64,000 nt of DNA from Escherichia phage HEMP5: sequence record OR424388.1; one strand, given 5' to 3'. Positions 4,450 to 22,953 of this stretch are shown here, piece by piece (within the stretch, counting starts at the first letter, position 1; every line of letters begins with the position of its first letter). The notes under the pieces are model-generated. The model ran no database searches, was not told the origin of the DNA, and saw only the letters and a list, made by a program, of their open reading frames with translations. Made by a program: the position numbers and the translations under genes.

Positions 4450-5463
4450 TCATTTATAATAACTTCGGTGGTTTTCAAGATAAACCTGTTCGAGGAAATT
4501 ATTCCAAAAGCTCATATCTACTGTTTTAGGCATACCATTCTTAGAAGCTTCAGTAGATGCTGCTTCTACTTGATCGACCACATCTTCCAAAAACTCTTGA
4601 ACTGTTTTAAATGGATGTTTACCCAACTTCACGTCGAGAATAAATGGAGCATCTTGGAGTGGATAAACCAAGTCACCAGTTTTGTAAATTTCCAATAGTT
4701 GAAGTCCACCACGACAAGCATGACTCAGAGCTTTCCAGTCAATACCTTCATTGGCTTCGGCCTTACGAGCACGTTCACCATATTCAGCATCTAATTTGTT
4801 CAGTGACTGCTTAAGCTCAATAAGAGAAAGCGTTGTCTGATATTTACGACCCAACACTGTGTAGAACGTTTGTGGACCTGTTTTCTCATGATTATGGAAC
4901 ACCCATTCACAGAATTCGTTTTCTGGAAGACGATGCTTAATATCTTCAACTTTAGTGCGACGCTGCTTAATAGAACCATCTTCTTGGTAATCAACCCATT
5001 GCTCAGGGATTTGATTAACTACTTTCAATACATCACGTAATGCAGCCAAACGAGAACCCTTGACACCGTATTTAGAAGCTTGCTTGCGGACATATCCTAA
5101 ATATGATTTCATGTTAGTCGTATAAAAACGAGAACGGTTGTCTTGAATAAACTTCCACACATCAGGCAAATCAGATTTAACCACTAGTTCAGGTGGAGTG
5201 TGAAGCATATCCAACGCTACAGTTTCACCATCTGCCGCTAATTTAAAGAAATACTTAAGACTGTATAGTTCATGGTCAATATCATCTTTAGTGTTTTTAG
5301 ATGATGTGTTGTTAGTGTTTTTACTCATGTGCTCTTTGACATTTCCGATAAGAATATCGCGAGCAGGAGGAACAAAGATTTCTTTAAAATCTACATCAGA
5401 TTCTGGGGTAGAAGTTCCATAAAGATGACTACCAAAATAGCTTTTCATTACTGTTTTCATCAT
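4450..5463 (-). CDS. Pol-beta-superfamily nucleotidyltransferase-fold protein (337 aa)
   Basis: N-terminus YFGSHLYGTSTPESDVDF matches the [GS]-x(9-13)-D-x-[DE] NTase signature, with a candidate third acidic residue in TVALDMLH; rest unrecognised. Confidence 0.6.
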   Translation of the reverse strand: MMKTVMKSYFGSHLYGTSTPESDVDFKEIFVPPARDILIGNVKEHMSKNTNNTSSKNTKDDIDHELYSLKYFFKLAADGETVALDMLHTPPELVVKSDLPDVWKFIQDNRSRFYTTNMKSYLGYVRKQASKYGVKGSRLAALRDVLKVVNQIPEQWVDYQEDGSIKQRRTKVEDIKHRLPENEFCEWVFHNHEKTGPQTFYTVLGRKYQTTLSLIELKQSLNKLDAEYGERARKAEANEGIDWKALSHACRGGLQLLEIYKTGDLVYPLQDAPFILDVKLGKHPFKTVQEFLEDVVDQVEAASTEASKNGMPKTVDMSFWNNFLEQVYLENHRSYYK

Positions 5464-18633: not shown

Positions 18634-18701
18634 TTATTTCTCCGTTTCTGTATTTGTTTTGATAAGTCTATAATAACACCGTCCTTGGTGTTTGTACACA
18701 A

Positions 18702-18977
18702 TTATTTCATATTATTGAAATATTCTTCTGCGATTTCGTCGTTATCATGGTAAACTTTAGAAGACAGTTTAACATAACTTTCAGCAGTGAACATGTTAAT
18801 CACAACCTTTACAGTATACCACTGACCATCTTCATTACCCATTACTGCGTAAGTTTCAAACATCGGATGGTCAGGACCGATAACTTTAATATCATTCACT
18901 GTACGACCAAAATCTTCTGAAACACATTTCATAAAGAAGTTGAACAGTTCACCGTAATTATCCATTTTATTCTCCAA
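18702..18977 (-). CDS. hypothetical protein (91 aa)
   Basis: ORF track; early promoter and GGAGAATAAAATG RBS upstream. Confidence 0.55.
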   Translation of the reverse strand: MENKMDNYGELFNFFMKCVSEDFGRTVNDIKVIGPDHPMFETYAVMGNEDGQWYTVKVVINMFTAESYVKLSSKVYHDNDEIAEEYFNNMK

Positions 18978-19003
18978 GTTGTTTTCTGTATCAGTAGTTG
19001 ATA

Positions 19004-19038
19004 GTTGTATAGTACCATGGAAGAACGGGGATGTAAAC
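19004..19038 (-). promoter_or_regulatory. T4 early-type promoter
   Basis: minus-strand GTTTACATCCCCGTTCTTCCATGGTACTATACAACTATC. Confidence 0.45.
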
Positions 19039-19170
19039 CGTTTTGTGAAAAATTTTTTAAAAAGTTTTGGGGGAATTCTAGGGCAGGGAGGGGCAATTAA
19101 AGGATAGGATAATATATTATAAAGGATAGAAACTAAATGATGCCTAGAGAGGCCCAGAAAGGTCTAGATG

Positions 19171-19200
19171 CCAAAAAGCCCCAACCTTTCGGAAGGGGCT
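19171..19200 (-). terminator. rho-independent terminator closing the tRNA/stable-RNA transcription unit
   Basis: minus-strand AGCCCCTTCCGAAAGGTTGGGGCTTTTTGG (GC stem, GAAA loop, T-run). Confidence 0.55.
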
Positions 19201-19249
19201 AAGCCTTGCGGCAACCTTGTCGGGGTTCCACCTGCTAAGGCAAGTGTTT

Positions 19250-19500
19250 GTACGAAACGCCGGGATTCGAACCCGATTATTAAGTAGTTGACGCTACTCA
19301 ATATTTTTAAAAGGCCATATCTCGACCATATCCGAACGTTCCGTCAAAAACGCTACTCGGCTTACGGCAAAGATATTTCCTCGAATCGATAATTCGGTGC
19401 GCCGTTTCTGCTGTGATATAAGGGGGCATTAACAAAACATAAAGATTTATTAATGCCAGTCCTTAAACAGGGAACATCAGTCCGACGACTTGCCGGTAGC
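19250..19500 (-). ncRNA. candidate phage stable RNA(s) (T4 species 1/2-like) with tRNA-like T-arm and acceptor-like end
   Basis: no ORF; minus-strand contains GGGTTCGAATCCCG T-arm-like element and several hairpins; boundaries not determined. Confidence 0.3.
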
Positions 19501-19505
19501 GACCC

Positions 19506-19580
19506 GGCTTCTTGTTTGGTATCCCGCCCTGGGATCGAACCAGGACCGCAAACTTAGAAGGATCGTATGCTATCCATTAC
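19506..19580 (-). tRNA. tRNA-Arg (anticodon TCT)
   Basis: minus-strand GTCCCGCTGGTGTAATGGATAGCATACGATCCTTCTAAGTTTGCGGTCCTGGTTCGATCCCAGGGCGGGATACCA; cloverleaf with CCA; matches remembered T4 tRNA-Arg. Confidence 0.9.
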
Positions 19581-20225
19581 ACCAGCGGGACGTAATTTAT
19601 TTAAAAGACAAGACAAATCGGAAATCTCATCTTTTTCTAAAACTACCAAATTTTCTAAAGCTTTCCATTTACAAAGATCTCTATCTCTTTTATATCCTTT
19701 GACTTCTATATAAAAATCATAAGTGGGTAAATAAAAATCAGGAAAATAGAGATGTTCTGAACCTTCCCATTCGTAAGGAATTGGCTTTATTTTATTAGTA
19801 TATTTGATATTGTGTTCTTTTAAAAACTTAGCAACTTTTAATTCCCAGGTCCCTTTAAATTTAAACCCGTCAAACTCATATGTTTTTACTCGACCAGAAA
19901 CATTAGAAGCAGAATATGAATCAGGATTATCAAGAACAGCTTGCCGCATTCTTTTAGAATGTGCTTCTTTGCGTTCATTAGACCATACATATCCAGTATT
20001 GGCTTTTCTAAGTTTTTCTCTAGTTTTATCAGAGACTTTTATTTCTTTACCTAGTTCTTTGGCTTTGGTAAATTGATTACTACCTTTAAGACCATAACGA
20101 GGGTTATTAGGGCCGCTCATATCTAATCTATTTGGGTTAGATTTGCACCGTTTTTCATGCTGCTTTAGTGAATTTAAATTTTTACATTCTTTAGAACAAT
20201 ATTGACAAAGCATAATTTTCTCCAT
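19554..20225 (-). CDS. putative nuclease / homing-endonuclease-like protein (223 aa) between tRNA subclusters
   Basis: ORF track; N-terminal Cys/His cluster CQYCSKECKNLNSLKQHEKRC; C-terminal PDF...YIEVKG resembling a PD-(D/E)xK core; last ~9 codons overlap tRNA-Arg. Confidence 0.5.
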   Translation of the reverse strand: MEKIMLCQYCSKECKNLNSLKQHEKRCKSNPNRLDMSGPNNPRYGLKGSNQFTKAKELGKEIKVSDKTREKLRKANTGYVWSNERKEAHSKRMRQAVLDNPDSYSASNVSGRVKTYEFDGFKFKGTWELKVAKFLKEHNIKYTNKIKPIPYEWEGSEHLYFPDFYLPTYDFYIEVKGYKRDRDLCKWKALENLVVLEKDEISDLSCLLNKLRPAGVMDSIRSF

Positions 20226-20282
20226 GAATTTTATATAGATATTTATTCATGGAGAAGTTGACTGCTCTACCTAATCAAAATA

Positions 20283-20356
20283 TGGCCCAGACCAGATTTG
20301 AACTGGTAACCTTTCCCTTATGAGGGGACTGCTGCTAACCATTGAGCTACAGGGCC
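20283..20356 (-). tRNA. tRNA with CAT anticodon (Ile in T4, presumably lysidine-modified)
   Basis: minus-strand GGCCCTGTAGCTCAATGGTTAGC...CTCATAA...GGTTCAAATCTGGTCTGGGCCA. Confidence 0.8.
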
Positions 20357-20361
20357 TTGAT

Positions 20362-20436
20362 ATGCTGATTGACGGAATCGAACCGCCGACCTTCTCATTA
20401 CAAGTGAGTTGCTCTACCTACTAAGCTAAATCAGCA
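20362..20436 (-). tRNA. tRNA-Thr (anticodon TGT)
   Basis: minus-strand TGCTGATTTAGCTTAGTAGGTAGAGCAACTCACTTGTAATGAG...GGTTCGATTCCGTCAATCAGCA. Confidence 0.85.
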
Positions 20437-20440
20437 AAAC

Positions 20441-20531
20441 TGGCGGAGGCGATAGGATTTGAACCTATGAGTCGCCGGAGCGACTGCCGGTTTTCAAGAC
20501 CGGTGCATTAAACCACTCTGCCACGCCTCCA
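20441..20531 (-). tRNA. tRNA-Ser (anticodon TGA, long variable arm)
   Basis: minus-strand TGGAGGCGTGGCAGAGTGGTTTAATGCACCGGTCTTGAAAACCGG...GGTTCAAATCCTATCGCCTCCGCCA. Confidence 0.85.
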
Positions 20532-20532
20532 G

Positions 20533-20606
20533 TCTCCATACAAGGATTTGAACCTTGGACCTCCTGATCCCAAATCAGGCGCTCTACCAAACTGAGCTAC
20601 ACGGAG
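20533..20606 (-). tRNA. tRNA-Pro (anticodon TGG)
   Basis: minus-strand CTCCGTGTAGCTCAGTTTGGTAGAGCGCCTGATTTGGGATCAGG...GGTTCAAATCC. Confidence 0.8.
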
Positions 20607-20615
20607 TAAATTAAA

Positions 20616-20690
<75 letters not shown>

Positions 20691-20695
20691 AAATT

Positions 20696-20782
20696 TGGTG
20701 CGAGAAGTGGGACTCGAACCCACAAGGAAATCATTCCGCAGCATTTTAAGTGCTGTGCCTTTACCAATTTGACCATTCTCGC
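20696..20782 (-). tRNA. tRNA-Leu (anticodon TAA, long variable arm)
   Basis: minus-strand GCGAGAATGGTCAAATTGGTAAAGGCACAGCACTTAAAATGCTG...GGGTTCGAGTCCCACTTCTCGCACCA. Confidence 0.85.
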
Positions 20783-20788
20783 GCTATA

Positions 20789-21421
20789 TTATTTATTACG
20801 TGAAAAAGACTGTTCTATCAATTCTGGACACTTTCGTTCTATCCATTTTCTAGCTTTTTGTGGGCTTATACCTATTATTTTAGCAGCTTTACTAACCCAT
20901 CCAAATTTAGAATAATCGATTTTAACTAATTCTTCGTAAATTTCATCAGTTAAAATCTTTTCATTAATATTTACCAGTAAATGATATAATTTATTATCAT
21001 TAGCAATTTTAATGAATCTTTTATAGTTTCCGCCTTTACTTAAACCTAATGAAGTAATTGCAGATGATATAGTAGCCGAATTTAATAGTGCGTTTAAAAT
21101 TTCTTCATCACTAACATTATAACGCTTTCTATTATTTTTAATATTTTTACCAGCAAAAGTATCAGTTTGCGAATGGCAATTTGGACATAATAATCTTAAA
21201 TTTGATTTAAGATGATTTTTGTTATTTCCATCAATATGGTCTAATTGTAGAACAATATGCTTATTTTGCCATTTTGAAATTTTACAAATTGCGCACTCAT
21301 ATGGAAAAATATTTTCTTTTATTATTTTGTCTTTCAGCTTTCCTGTACTAAAATTTGGATGTTTTCCTTCAAAAATTTCAGCTAATTTAGTATCCATAAT
21401 ATGATTCCCAATTATTAACAA
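20789..21421 (-). CDS. HNH-family homing-endonuclease-like protein (210 aa)
   Basis: CAICKISKW...LQLDHIDGNNKNHLKSNLRLLCPNCHSQTD is a canonical HNH/zinc-finger motif; stop codon 3 nt from tRNA-Leu 5' end. Confidence 0.8.
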   Translation of the reverse strand: MLIIGNHIMDTKLAEIFEGKHPNFSTGKLKDKIIKENIFPYECAICKISKWQNKHIVLQLDHIDGNNKNHLKSNLRLLCPNCHSQTDTFAGKNIKNNRKRYNVSDEEILNALLNSATISSAITSLGLSKGGNYKRFIKIANDNKLYHLLVNINEKILTDEIYEELVKIDYSKFGWVSKAAKIIGISPQKARKWIERKCPELIEQSFSRNK

Positions 21422-21496
21422 AGGCTCTCAAACAAGAACCCTTGATGATAGAGGGTATTAATCAGTGCGGTATGAGTTAATAATAACAAATAATTC

Positions 21497-22012
21497 TTAA
21501 AGCAAATTAAACATTTTAACGGTAGGCAAAACAATTTCTTCTTCTATATAAGAGTATTTAACACTCTCAACTACACGCAAAAAATCATAATCATAATACT
21601 CAGAAGCATTACCTAAAATATTAATAAGTCCTTCAAGCACTTTATTACCATTCACAAAGAATAAGTCAAATACACGTTCTTCATCTTCTTCAGATTTATT
21701 ACCAAGATCAACTTCTATGCGAAAGACCTTTTTAATGAATTCTGGATAAAGCTGGTCTGAGAACAGTCCTTCAACTAAGTATTCATAAATAAAAAGAGAT
21801 TGCTCGCTGAACAAACCATTACCACAATAGCGCTCAATTTTAGTACTAGAATATCTGCTTTTAAACTTCTTTAAAAGATACTGAAATTGTAAGATTTCAT
21901 GCTCTTCTACGCCAAACAGTGTTTTGGTTTTATAGTTGTCACCATCATTTTCCCAGGTAGTGACATCAATTACGTAGCCCTGCGGAATTGTAGTACCTAA
22001 ACAAATATTCAT
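21497..22012 (-). CDS. hypothetical protein (171 aa), acidic
   Basis: ORF track; tightly packed with the next two genes. Confidence 0.55.
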   Translation of the reverse strand: MNICLGTTIPQGYVIDVTTWENDGDNYKTKTLFGVEEHEILQFQYLLKKFKSRYSSTKIERYCGNGLFSEQSLFIYEYLVEGLFSDQLYPEFIKKVFRIEVDLGNKSEEDEERVFDLFFVNGNKVLEGLINILGNASEYYDYDFLRVVESVKYSYIEEEIVLPTVKMFNLL

Positions 22013-22015
22013 TTT

Positions 22016-22312
22016 TCACCACGCTGCGTTAATGTAAGTATATTTAATACATTCAAGACCCAAAGGATTCTTGAAAATATCATATTCAAGAGGACCTTTT
22101 TCTGTTTCAATAAAGAAATCAAAATTTACTGTATTAAATTTACGGTCTTCCTTCACTAATTTAACTTGTGAAGATGAACGGTCAATGTAAACCTTTTCAA
22201 CTTCAAAACATGTTAAAATGCCATAATCATCAATCAAGGCTTTAGCTGCTTCTTGATCATATTTATATCCATTTTCAATGGATGATACTTTAGCATAAAG
22301 AATCATTATCAA
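22016..22312 (-). CDS. hypothetical protein (98 aa)
   Basis: ORF track. Confidence 0.55.
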   Translation of the reverse strand: MIMILYAKVSSIENGYKYDQEAAKALIDDYGILTCFEVEKVYIDRSSSQVKLVKEDRKFNTVNFDFFIETEKGPLEYDIFKNPLGLECIKYTYINAAW

Positions 22313-22710
22313 CCTTCATCAACAACAGTATGCGTATTGGCATTTACGATTTGCCACCAATCAAAGCGATTAGAACCATACATCGGTTTGTTTTCATTTT
22401 CTTTGATAATGTCACGGAGTTCATCTTCAGAGAATGCTTTAGCGATTAAATCGGTATACCCACCACGTGGATAATAATTATCACCTGCAAACAAAAGGAA
22501 ATTTACCTTCCCGGAAGGAACATACGCTTCCTTAGGATACTTGTTTCCTGCGTGGTCAACCACTTCAATATAACGGTAAGGAATATCGGTTCTTTCAACC
22601 CATTGCCATGCCGCTGCAGGGGAATCGAAAGCATCTACACCTAAACGATTATCTTCATCTTTAGACGGATTATTTTCGTAATCCGCATATACATAATATT
22701 CAACGTTCAT
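22309..22710 (-). CDS. hypothetical protein (133 aa)
   Basis: ORF track; 4-nt overlap with downstream gene. Confidence 0.55.
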   Translation of the reverse strand: MNVEYYVYADYENNPSKDEDNRLGVDAFDSPAAAWQWVERTDIPYRYIEVVDHAGNKYPKEAYVPSGKVNFLLFAGDNYYPRGGYTDLIAKAFSEDELRDIIKENENKPMYGSNRFDWWQIVNANTHTVVDEG

Positions 22711-22895
22711 TATTCACCTTTAGAAATTTTATCCATAACGATAGCAATTAAACCAATTAAAAATGCTACTACAAGTGAAAAAACATTTTCTGCCGTAGTC
22801 AATAATCCGCATATAAATCCAACAAACATTGAAAAACTGAAAGCGGAAGCAGAAATTGCAATAGCAACATTTCGAATTAATTCACAGCGTTTCAT
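22710..22895 (-). CDS. small membrane protein (61 aa, single/double TM)
   Basis: track ORF 22710..23036 trimmed to ATG 22895 (MKRCELIRNVAIAISASAFSFSMFVGFICGLL...) with GAGGAG RBS downstream of early promoter; longer form would overlap the IP gene. Confidence 0.5.
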   Translation of the reverse strand: MKRCELIRNVAIAISASAFSFSMFVGFICGLLTTAENVFSLVVAFLIGLIAIVMDKISKGE

Positions 22896-22919
22896 TTTAT
22901 TCTCCTCAGTAGTTGATAG

Positions 22920-22953
22920 GGTAATAGTATCACTACCCCATCTAAAAGTAAAT
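22920..22953 (-). promoter_or_regulatory. early-type promoter-like element (ATTTAC -35 variant, GTGATACTATTAC -10 region)
   Basis: -10 region identical to that at 23216..23234. Confidence 0.35.

Follow-up and report, generated by a model that had tools for sequence, protein, structure and literature searches.

Organization of the Locus

The DNA analyzed in this work is a stretch of 64,000 nucleotides (nt) from Escherichia phage HEMP5 (record OR424388.1), a T4-like phage of the genus Tequatrovirus; this whole stretch is hereafter referred to as the window. Seven transfer RNA (tRNA) genes, all on the same strand and including tRNA-Arg(TCT), were recognized in it by ARAGORN, and the subject of our analysis is an open reading frame (ORF) lying among them on the minus strand (19554..20225), which probably encodes a site-specific DNA endonuclease and whose 3' end runs into tRNA-Arg. 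From its first ATG the ORF encodes 223 amino acids (aa), as reported in the original prediction, which had been made from the letters of the DNA. A second ATG (20213) is preceded, 6 nt upstream, by a GGAG Shine-Dalgarno sequence and is the start adopted in the GenBank records; it is likely the actual start of the ORF, giving a protein of 219 aa.

In T4, the equivalent site is occupied by tRNA-Ile, segB, and tRNA-Arg, in this order, with the segB stop codon 5 nt before tRNA-Arg. The homology between the window and T4 ends 8 nt past tRNA-Ile (20275) and restarts 8 nt before tRNA-Arg (19599), so that the segment 19600..20274 of the window replaces the segB segment. Over this segment no DNA or protein similarity to T4 segB was found, and no GIY-YIG family appeared among the Pfam matches to the protein up to E = 1; on these two grounds, the possibility that the ORF is a diverged SegB was ruled out. 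The early suggestion of an ORF in the segB position that lacks a GIY-YIG motif, has a core like that of PD-(D/E)xK nucleases, and may be a different free-standing endonuclease displacing segB and sharing DNA with tRNA-Arg was supported in all its parts.

The tRNA-Arg(TCT) gene was located at 19517..19591 of the minus strand by ARAGORN and at 19520..19591 by Rfam (48.8 bits versus a threshold of 29), and it is identical to the T4 tRNA-Arg in the alignment with T4 and other phages. The ORF shares with it 38 nt (19554..19591, minus strand), that is, the last 12 codons and the stop, corresponding to nt 1-38 of the tRNA; the tail encoded in this way reads PAGVMDSIRSF plus one base of an Arg codon, and is followed by the stop codon TAA, which coincides with T36-A37-A38, i.e., the last base of the anticodon and the two following nucleotides. 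The existence of the overlap had been correctly perceived in the original prediction, whereas its extent (19554..19580, about nine codons) had been underestimated. The very same ORF/tRNA-Arg junction is found in the phages vB_Eco_F25, IME341, and EcWhh-1, which rules out a sequencing error at the stop codon and, with it, the alternative that the true stop lies upstream of the tRNA.

How might this overlap have arisen? The nearest relative of the protein outside the phages carrying this junction (P0002, 84% identical) is encoded by the metagenomic contig L059, which shares with the window the upstream hairpin and the tRNA scar described below, as well as tRNA-Arg, and in which the ORF has a TAA of its own 18 nt before tRNA-Arg. 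The lineage of the window lacks 26 nt of L059, namely, the five terminal codons together with the stop and a portion of the spacer; this deletion removed the ORF's own stop, so that the frame continues into tRNA-Arg. The deletion lies directly upstream of a conserved leader, ATAAATTAC (19592..19600, minus strand), delimited by alignment with L059 and with the 3' end of T4 segB. Moreover, the 17 nt preceding tRNA-Arg in L059 (TGAAATTCTAAATTAA) show homology to T4 segB at its end and to the spacer after it (TGAAATTTTAAATTAC), which is consistent with segB having been the earlier occupant of the site. Since tRNA-Arg is unchanged relative to T4, it is the coding sequence that adapted to the tRNA and not the reverse. 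On the basis of these alignments, the overlap is a secondary accident of the 26-nt deletion, and the added tail would be incidental.

The Encoded Protein

The protein consists of an N-terminal half that presumably reads sequence joined to a C-terminal PD-(D/E)xK nuclease. A database search retrieved 475 homologues at E <= 1e-5, mostly 200-230 aa long, and conservation was scored on an alignment of 47 of them. The N-terminal Cys/His cluster recognized by the original prediction is a CCHC zinc finger (20145..20207, minus strand; C7, C10, H23, and C27 in the 223-aa numbering, spaced as C-x2-C-x12-H-x3-C), of which C3, C6, and H19 (219-aa numbering) are invariant and C23 is conserved in at least 90% of the homologues; the Pfam matches of the protein to C2H2-type zinc fingers are weak. 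It is followed by two helical repeats, SDKTREKLRKA and SNERKEAHSKRM (19926..20036, minus strand), which resemble NUMOD3 DNA-binding motifs and correspond to helices at residues 62-72 and 79-95 of the AlphaFold model. The NUMOD3 profile (PF07460) is matched by 8 of the 47 relatives (best E = 1.4e-5), while the window protein gives no match at E <= 1.

The nuclease domain (19614..19892, minus strand) contains the catalytic residues E128 (19842..19844), D163 (19737..19739), E174 (19704..19706), and K176 (19698..19700). The motifs E128, P162-D163, and E174-V-K176 (223-aa numbering) are invariant across the alignment, where the invariant positions of this domain read W123-E124, P158-D159-F160, E170, K172, and G173 in the 219-aa numbering; the PDF...IEVKG segment, previously noticed as reminiscent of a PD-(D/E)xK core, is invariant as well and proved to be one. 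The profile of the family matches T7 endonuclease I (1M0D; E = 2.4e-6), with the E/PD/ExK residues aligned to the catalytic E20, D55, E65, and K67, and the related Pfam family Phage_endo_I (PF05367) is matched by 36 of the 47 relatives at E <= 0.01. The C-terminal 15-25 residues are variable in both length and sequence, and the tail encoded by the tRNA is not conserved. The check by structure prediction proposed together with the original prediction yielded a confident model (mean pLDDT, the per-residue confidence score, of 88), in which a restriction-endonuclease-like alpha/beta fold is present: the zinc finger scores 96-97 and the nuclease domain 94-97, whereas the tRNA-encoded tail scores about 50 and is predicted to be disordered. 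As modeled, the nuclease fold is nearest to the homing endonuclease domain of I-Bth0305I and to T7 endonuclease I. The likeness to the former is at the level of the fold, since no conserved HD of the EDxHD motif exists in the 47 homologues, whose invariant set is E/PD/ExK.

The affinity with T7 endonuclease I, which is the sole significant sequence-profile match with a solved structure and whose four catalytic residues align with those of the window protein, raises the question of whether the gene encodes an ordinary enzyme of DNA metabolism, namely, a Holliday junction resolvase of this type. The best PHROG match (15137, 'endonuclease', E = 1.2e-40) is accompanied by matches to a resolvase PHROG family, and the genes of the family are widely labeled in GenBank as 'endonuclease I', 'Holliday junction resolvase', or 'hypothetical', with the split tRNA halves surrounding them left unannotated. 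T7 endonuclease I, however, is a structure-specific junction resolvase without sequence-reading domains, while the window protein possesses a zinc finger and NUMOD3-like repeats and its gene behaves as a mobile one, being present in just a handful of otherwise near-identical phages and sited in tRNA arrays with clean empty and filled alleles. In addition, T4-like phages already encode endonuclease VII. We therefore regard a resolvase role as extremely unlikely.

Lateral Transfer and Maintenance of the Gene

The tRNA region of the window matches 892 phage records, whereas the DNA of the ORF is found at >=95% identity in only four, representing three phages: F25 (Tequatrovirus), whose ORF is 100% identical, along with the Dhakavirus members IME341 and EcWhh-1. 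The block formed by tRNA(CAT), the ORF, and tRNA-Arg (20361..19515) is 97.06% identical to that of IME341 over 849 nt, while the protein genes on its flanks show 71-83% identity, and the alignment between the two genomes collapses at both tRNA edges of the block. Its left edge is the intact upstream tRNA(CAT) gene, the 'tRNA-Ile' of T4 (20283..20356, minus strand; found by both ARAGORN and Rfam). The occurrence of a near-identical block in divergent genomes points to a lateral transfer between Tequatrovirus and Dhakavirus, presumably a recent one. An empty site exists in the Dhakavirus fDHCT2, where tRNA-Met and tRNA-Arg are separated by five bases (ACTAT); the arrangement in IME08 is Met-Asn-Arg, and in ACG-C40/T2, which likewise lack the gene, it is Met-Tyr-Asn-His-Arg.

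The comparison of the Tequatrovirus and Dhakavirus copies of the ORF revealed 13 synonymous and 6-7 non-synonymous differences, with a ratio of non-synonymous to synonymous change (pN/pS) of 0.11-0.13, which indicates that the gene is maintained under purifying selection. This value has a bearing on the idea that losing the stop codon and reading on into the tRNA are marks of a dying gene, that is, a decaying and inactive remnant. The 26-nt deletion did remove the native C-terminus and stop, the target tRNA has been reduced to a scar, and Aeromonas phage PX29 carries a copy that is clearly broken; however, all catalytic and zinc-binding residues of the window protein are intact, the low pN/pS was obtained from two phage genera whose copies have the deletion in common, and the C-terminal tail is variable and looks dispensable across the family. 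An inactive remnant thus appears highly unlikely.

The tRNA region as a whole (18700..22950, compared with F25, T4, and ACG-C40) is a mosaic, with the left part, from an HNH gene to tRNA-Met, being 98% identical to ACG-C40 and the right part, from tRNA-Arg onward, being T4/F25-like. No record of the phage collection covers >=80% of the segment 19000..21500. We also observed that in the GenBank entry of vB_Eco_F25 (OP870144.1; L001) the tRNA features are displaced by about 380 nt, and lie on the opposite strand, with respect to the ARAGORN predictions, and that tRNA-Arg is unannotated; these coordinates look wrong.

The Family in tRNA Arrays and Its Insertion Point

A scan of IMG/VR returned 41 loci, and the distribution of the family was analyzed in 45 non-redundant ones. 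In 40 of the 45, tRNA genes are found no more than 3 kb away, and nearly all of them share the strand of the ORF. The GenBank homologues examined above about 40% identity (CkP1, Acinetobacter phage AM101, IME13, PhaxI, and Kuja) are all placed inside a tRNA array and on the tRNA strand; the PX29 copy is at the edge of an array, and that of Bhz51 (34% identical) within one. The presence of the gene is patchy: among the records matching the Kuttervirus region, 5 of 327 cover >=80% of the query and hence carry the gene, and the same is true for 9 of the 146 records matching the Acinetobacter region.

Empty alleles were seen in fDHCT2, AB-Navy1, KaAlpha, and GG32, and two pairs of filled and empty alleles allowed the insertion point to be located. 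AM101 differs from AB-Navy1 by a clean insertion of 664 nt in tRNA-Met(CAT), whose halves are both kept and whose flanks are 99.5-99.9% identical; the insert is made up of a 38-nt untranslated region (UTR) and the ORF, which stops at T36-A37-A38. Similarly, the homology between CkP1 and Klebsiella phage KaAlpha breaks exactly after C34 and resumes at A35. Since the intron mode of ARAGORN gives many chimeric calls in dense arrays, we kept those split tRNAs whose span brackets a family ORF and whose halves form one cloverleaf by eye; the cases retained are L006, L004, L060, L061, and L055, two of which are backed by an empty-site comparison. The five split tRNA(CAT) genes (AM101, CkP1, L060, L061, and PX29) are all compatible with an insertion between C34 and A35. 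In PX29 (L055, 2001..2629) the family ORF is broken, with the match in two pieces and 309 nt annotated, and both halves of the split tRNA(CAT) are still recognizable. As for Kuttervirus PhaxI, only nt 1-27 remain of the tRNA-Met that is intact in GG32, and the replacement, 808 nt long, brings the endonuclease gene and, after it, a tRNA-Met that is different and complete.

In about half of the loci (19 of 38 at >=24 bits, versus 9 of 190 shuffled controls), an unannotated tRNA 5' half precedes the ORF at a distance of 20-60 nt, and tRNA 3' halves were detected after the ORF stop in nine loci (>=26 bits), versus 1 of 200 shuffles. Most of the upstream scars end in '…ACTC|', and their counterpart in the window reads AACTT|CTCC. 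This probable decayed 5'-half scar (…GATTAGGTAGAGCAGTCAACTT|CTCC…; 20255..20276, minus strand) ends where the anticodon would begin, is conserved in L059, and is the positional homologue, also in its end point ('ACTC|'), of the clear scars of the relatives. Neither the window nor the AM101 insert contains an intron family in Rfam at E <= 10, on which ground a group I or group II intron around the ORF was rejected, and no ribozyme was detected. Our survey of the literature, mainly open-access, turned up no account of this family, of insertions into the anticodon of phage tRNA genes, or of ORF-tRNA overlaps as a pattern. The family is large and apparently undescribed and, on the basis of the loci compared, appears to be specialized on phage tRNA genes, with a conserved insertion point in the anticodon.

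Two further observations concern the array of AM101: the interrupted tRNA-Met is adjoined by a tRNA with the anticodon CTA (L006, 2345..2419; amber-suppressor type, labeled tRNA-Pyl), and the array also contains a small gene with an RF-1 domain, similar to peptidyl-tRNA hydrolases (L006, 3774..4010).

The preservation of both tRNA halves in some of these phages leads to the possibility that the protein has a role at the RNA level. According to this idea, the inserted element would act as a protein-dependent tRNA intron within the anticodon loop; this protein or RNases of the host, along with an RNA ligase from either the phage or the host, would restore the interrupted tRNA by endonucleolytic excision and ligation, and the nuclease would serve splicing besides, or instead of, DNA homing. 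The cloverleaf-compatible halves with a covarying anticodon stem, as well as a divergence of the endonuclease comparable to that of a flanking gene, would fit such a role; however, a recent homing into already diverged tRNA alleles explains the intact halves equally well, and the flanks of AM101 and AB-Navy1 are 99.5-99.9% identical. No ribozyme was detected and no bulge-helix-bulge motif was seen, although no search was aimed at one; the scars decay in other lineages, that of the window included; the catalytic motif is of the DNA-cutting E/PD/ExK type; and the window copy lacks a 3' half for splicing. For these reasons, we consider an RNA-level role very unlikely. In the most explicit form of the idea, insertions of the AM101/CkP1 type, sited in an otherwise perfect tRNA(CAT) gene, would constitute a protein-dependent tRNA intron in a bacterial virus, with the tRNA restored via RNA-repair enzymes of phage or host, such as T4-type Pnk/Rnl or RtcB, and the window copy being a degenerate descendant; to this we would likewise assign only a slim chance.

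ORF-tRNA Overlaps as a Wider Pattern

The run-on of the ORF into tRNA-Arg is not an isolated case. In 16 of the 45 loci there is an overlap between the family ORF and the following same-strand tRNA, and in seven more the ORF ends <=15 nt from it. Among the ORFs of the same arrays that do not belong to the family, 13 of 79 overlap a tRNA, several of them being T5orf172, DUF559, or HNH nucleases. Even though the overlap is enriched in the family with respect to the other ORFs (Fisher p = 0.002), these 13 cases weaken the notion that it is a special feature of the family or of the locus; genes crowded into tRNA arrays show it in general. Five members that are 38-46% identical to one another, associated with tRNA-Met genes 57-75% identical, all stop at nt 8-10 (U8-A9-G10) of the tRNA, and other members stop at nt 13-15 or 36-38. 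The tRNA genes offer stops in all frames: those of tRNA-Arg lie at nt 13-15, 20-22, and 36-38, and U8-A9-G10 is found in many tRNAs.

Examples outside the family include T5orf172, DUF559/Vsr-like, and HNH ORFs of CkP1 (L004, 74..601 and 4651..5145), L016 (1397..2122), and L048 (445..864), which end inside the next tRNA with offsets of -10 to -18 nt. The most extreme overlap that we have seen concerns a Karamvirus-like contig (L060, 1737..2414), where the ORF spans the whole 3' half of the split tRNA(CAT) and its stop falls past the CCA end.

Expression Signals

Upstream of the likely start codon, a hairpin with a 12-bp stem (20218..20256, minus strand) conceals the first ATG as well as the Shine-Dalgarno GGAG (20220..20223). 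Its minimum free energy is -21.7 kcal/mol (z = -5.8), and none of 200 shuffled sequences folds as well. The 5' arm and loop carry AATAAATA (20240..20247), which matches the T4 late-promoter box in seven of eight positions. Equivalent hairpins, different in sequence and identical in structure, are present in many members of the family, commonly with (T/G/C)ATAAATA in the loop. A scan for sigma-70 promoters and terminators gave nothing above the shuffled expectation near the ORF. As regards the window as a whole, the exact late box TATAAATA occurs in it 22 times versus 9.7 expected from shuffles, which is normal for a T4-like genome.

A control of segB by a hairpin at its ribosome-binding site (RBS) has been proposed in the SegB paper, and the same design has been shown for I-TevI-III (PMC2330249). 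By analogy, the gene would be transcribed within the tRNA precursor, with the hairpin masking the ribosome-binding site in read-through transcripts, and the late-promoter-like box might allow late expression. For segB, it has also been proposed that the processing of tRNA-Arg cuts the messenger RNA (mRNA) between the last codon and the stop (PMC2330249). In the window, a cut by RNase P at the 5' end of tRNA-Arg would remove the last 12 codons and the stop, leaving a non-stop mRNA and limiting the output of the enzyme further, so that each transcript might give rise either to the mature tRNA or to the complete protein.

A Probable Homing Endonuclease Gene in the segB Slot

Taken together, these data make it quite probable that the ORF encodes a site-specific DNA endonuclease and that its gene behaves as a free-standing homing endonuclease gene, which inserts at tRNA anticodons and has taken over the segB slot. 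The patchy presence, the empty-site alleles, and the near-identical copy in divergent genomes are among the features by which a homing endonuclease gene is recognized. The mechanism might be as follows. The zinc finger and the NUMOD3-like helices would read the target DNA, and the PD-(D/E)xK domain (E128/D163/E174/K176) would cut it; the target of the family would be phage tRNA genes, typically tRNA(CAT), with the cut at or near the anticodon. Repair from the genome of a carrier would then introduce a copy of the gene at the break, which lies between C34 and A35, and, since the insertion splits the recognition site, the carrier genome would be protected. The conserved tRNA sequences on both sides might act as homology arms, able to move the cassette between quite different phages. 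As for the history of the window, the original target tRNA would have been eroded to the scar at about 20255..20276, with the cassette in the segB slot, and the 26-nt deletion would have occurred later.

A number of observations weigh against this interpretation, in addition to the tRNA overlaps of unrelated array genes reported above. The target and the cut position are deduced, for all members, from insertion junctions. The window copy no longer lies inside a recognizable tRNA and retains just a decayed 5'-half scar, which is weak on its own (22 bits, with an exact D-arm match of 11 nt) and whose isotype is uncertain, with a resemblance to tRNA-Met by sequence and family analogy and, in its synteny with IME08, to tRNA-Asn. 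Relatives at 24-25% identity (Staphylococcus phage SA1 and Klebsiella phage phi1_146055) are located outside tRNA arrays. Regarding the protein, the match to Phage_endo_I (21.7 bits, E = 1.6e-4) is under the curated gathering threshold of 29.1 bits, and the Foldseek comparison of the model with the PDB returned nothing under E = 0.01. Finally, the exact late box TATAAATA is absent from the hairpin and the 5' UTR of the window gene.

Comparison with Known Systems

The closest functional parallel is SegB of T4/T6. Both genes occupy the same slot between tRNA-Ile(CAU) and tRNA-Arg, within the tRNA precursor transcript; both families are tRNA-associated, with tRNA genes as (in our case, putative) targets; and both genes have an RBS hairpin and a 3' end at the processing site of tRNA-Arg. 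The two proteins, however, have unrelated folds, with an N-terminal GIY-YIG nuclease in SegB and a C-terminal PD-(D/E)xK one in the window protein. Furthermore, SegB, which recognizes the T-arm, cleaves tRNA genes close to their 3' end, whereas the junctions of the window family are in the anticodon, and segB stops 5 nt before tRNA-Arg, whereas the window ORF stops 38 nt inside it.

SegB is enriched beside tRNAs and amplifies tRNA-Tyr, thereby escaping Septu (PMC13096335). This precedent suggests that the window gene might be a domesticated helper, whose breaks in the tRNA array would drive recombination or segmental amplification of phage tRNA genes against tRNA-cutting defenses, as SegB does in T6. 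Such a role is compatible with homing, from which it differs only in the selective benefit, and it would agree with the position of the gene in the segB slot, with the tie of the family to tRNA arrays, and with the complete replacement tRNA-Met brought by the PhaxI cassette. However, amplified arrays were not seen in any of the loci examined, the AM101 and CkP1 insertions interrupt a tRNA gene and add none, and the patchy distribution fits a selfish element. A helper function is therefore rather unlikely, and we favor the interpretation of the gene as a homing endonuclease gene.

Other systems resemble the homing endonuclease gene proposed here in single traits. I-Ssp6803I, encoded in the group I intron of the Synechocystis tRNA-fMet, is, like the relatives of the window gene, a PD-(D/E)xK enzyme in a tRNA anticodon loop; however, its carrier is a self-splicing, cyanobacterial group I intron, while the window family belongs to phages and has no detectable ribozyme, and it is a small tetramer without zinc-finger or NUMOD modules, with only a remote structural similarity to the window protein. 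I-Bth0305I and the EDxHD (Vsr-like) enzymes differ in their signature (EDxHD versus E…PD…ExK) and in being intron-encoded in protein-coding genes, or located in 'fractured genes', and not in tRNA genes. F-TflI/II/IV of phage T5 are also encoded by free-standing genes within a phage tRNA array, but they have an HNH fold, several are nicking enzymes, and anticodon insertion has not been reported for them.

An HNH gene, the second free-standing endonuclease gene of this array, lies in the window as well (20789..21421, minus strand). It encodes a 210-aa protein (PHROG 14736, E = 6e-124), the relatives of which are annotated as similar to T5 F-TflIV; it occupies the site of the T4 tRNA-Gln and ends 6 nt before tRNA-Leu, the same arrangement being present in ACG-C40. 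The seven tRNAs of the window array do not include tRNA-Gln. Downstream of tRNA-Arg, the segment at about 19165..19515 (minus strand) is 94.7% identical to the T4 stretch encoding species 2 (rnaD) and species 1 (rnaC), both of them stable RNAs; Rfam, which has no family for the species 1/2 RNAs, reported nothing there.

Significance

The segB slot is of interest because SegB-driven tRNA amplification defeats a tRNA-cutting host defense, and our findings indicate that this slot is open to an unrelated endonuclease. In terms of annotation, the labels 'endonuclease I/Holliday junction resolvase' and 'hypothetical' should be corrected, and the missing split tRNA halves added. A question that these data raise concerns the interrupted phage tRNA genes, which might be dead or repaired at the RNA level. 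More generally, at least 475 proteins, distributed over Straboviridae, Ackermannviridae, and many uncultivated phages, appear to be dedicated to tRNA genes; as such, the family would provide both a source of candidate rare-cutting enzymes with tRNA-gene targets and a concrete explanation for the mosaic tRNA arrays of phages.

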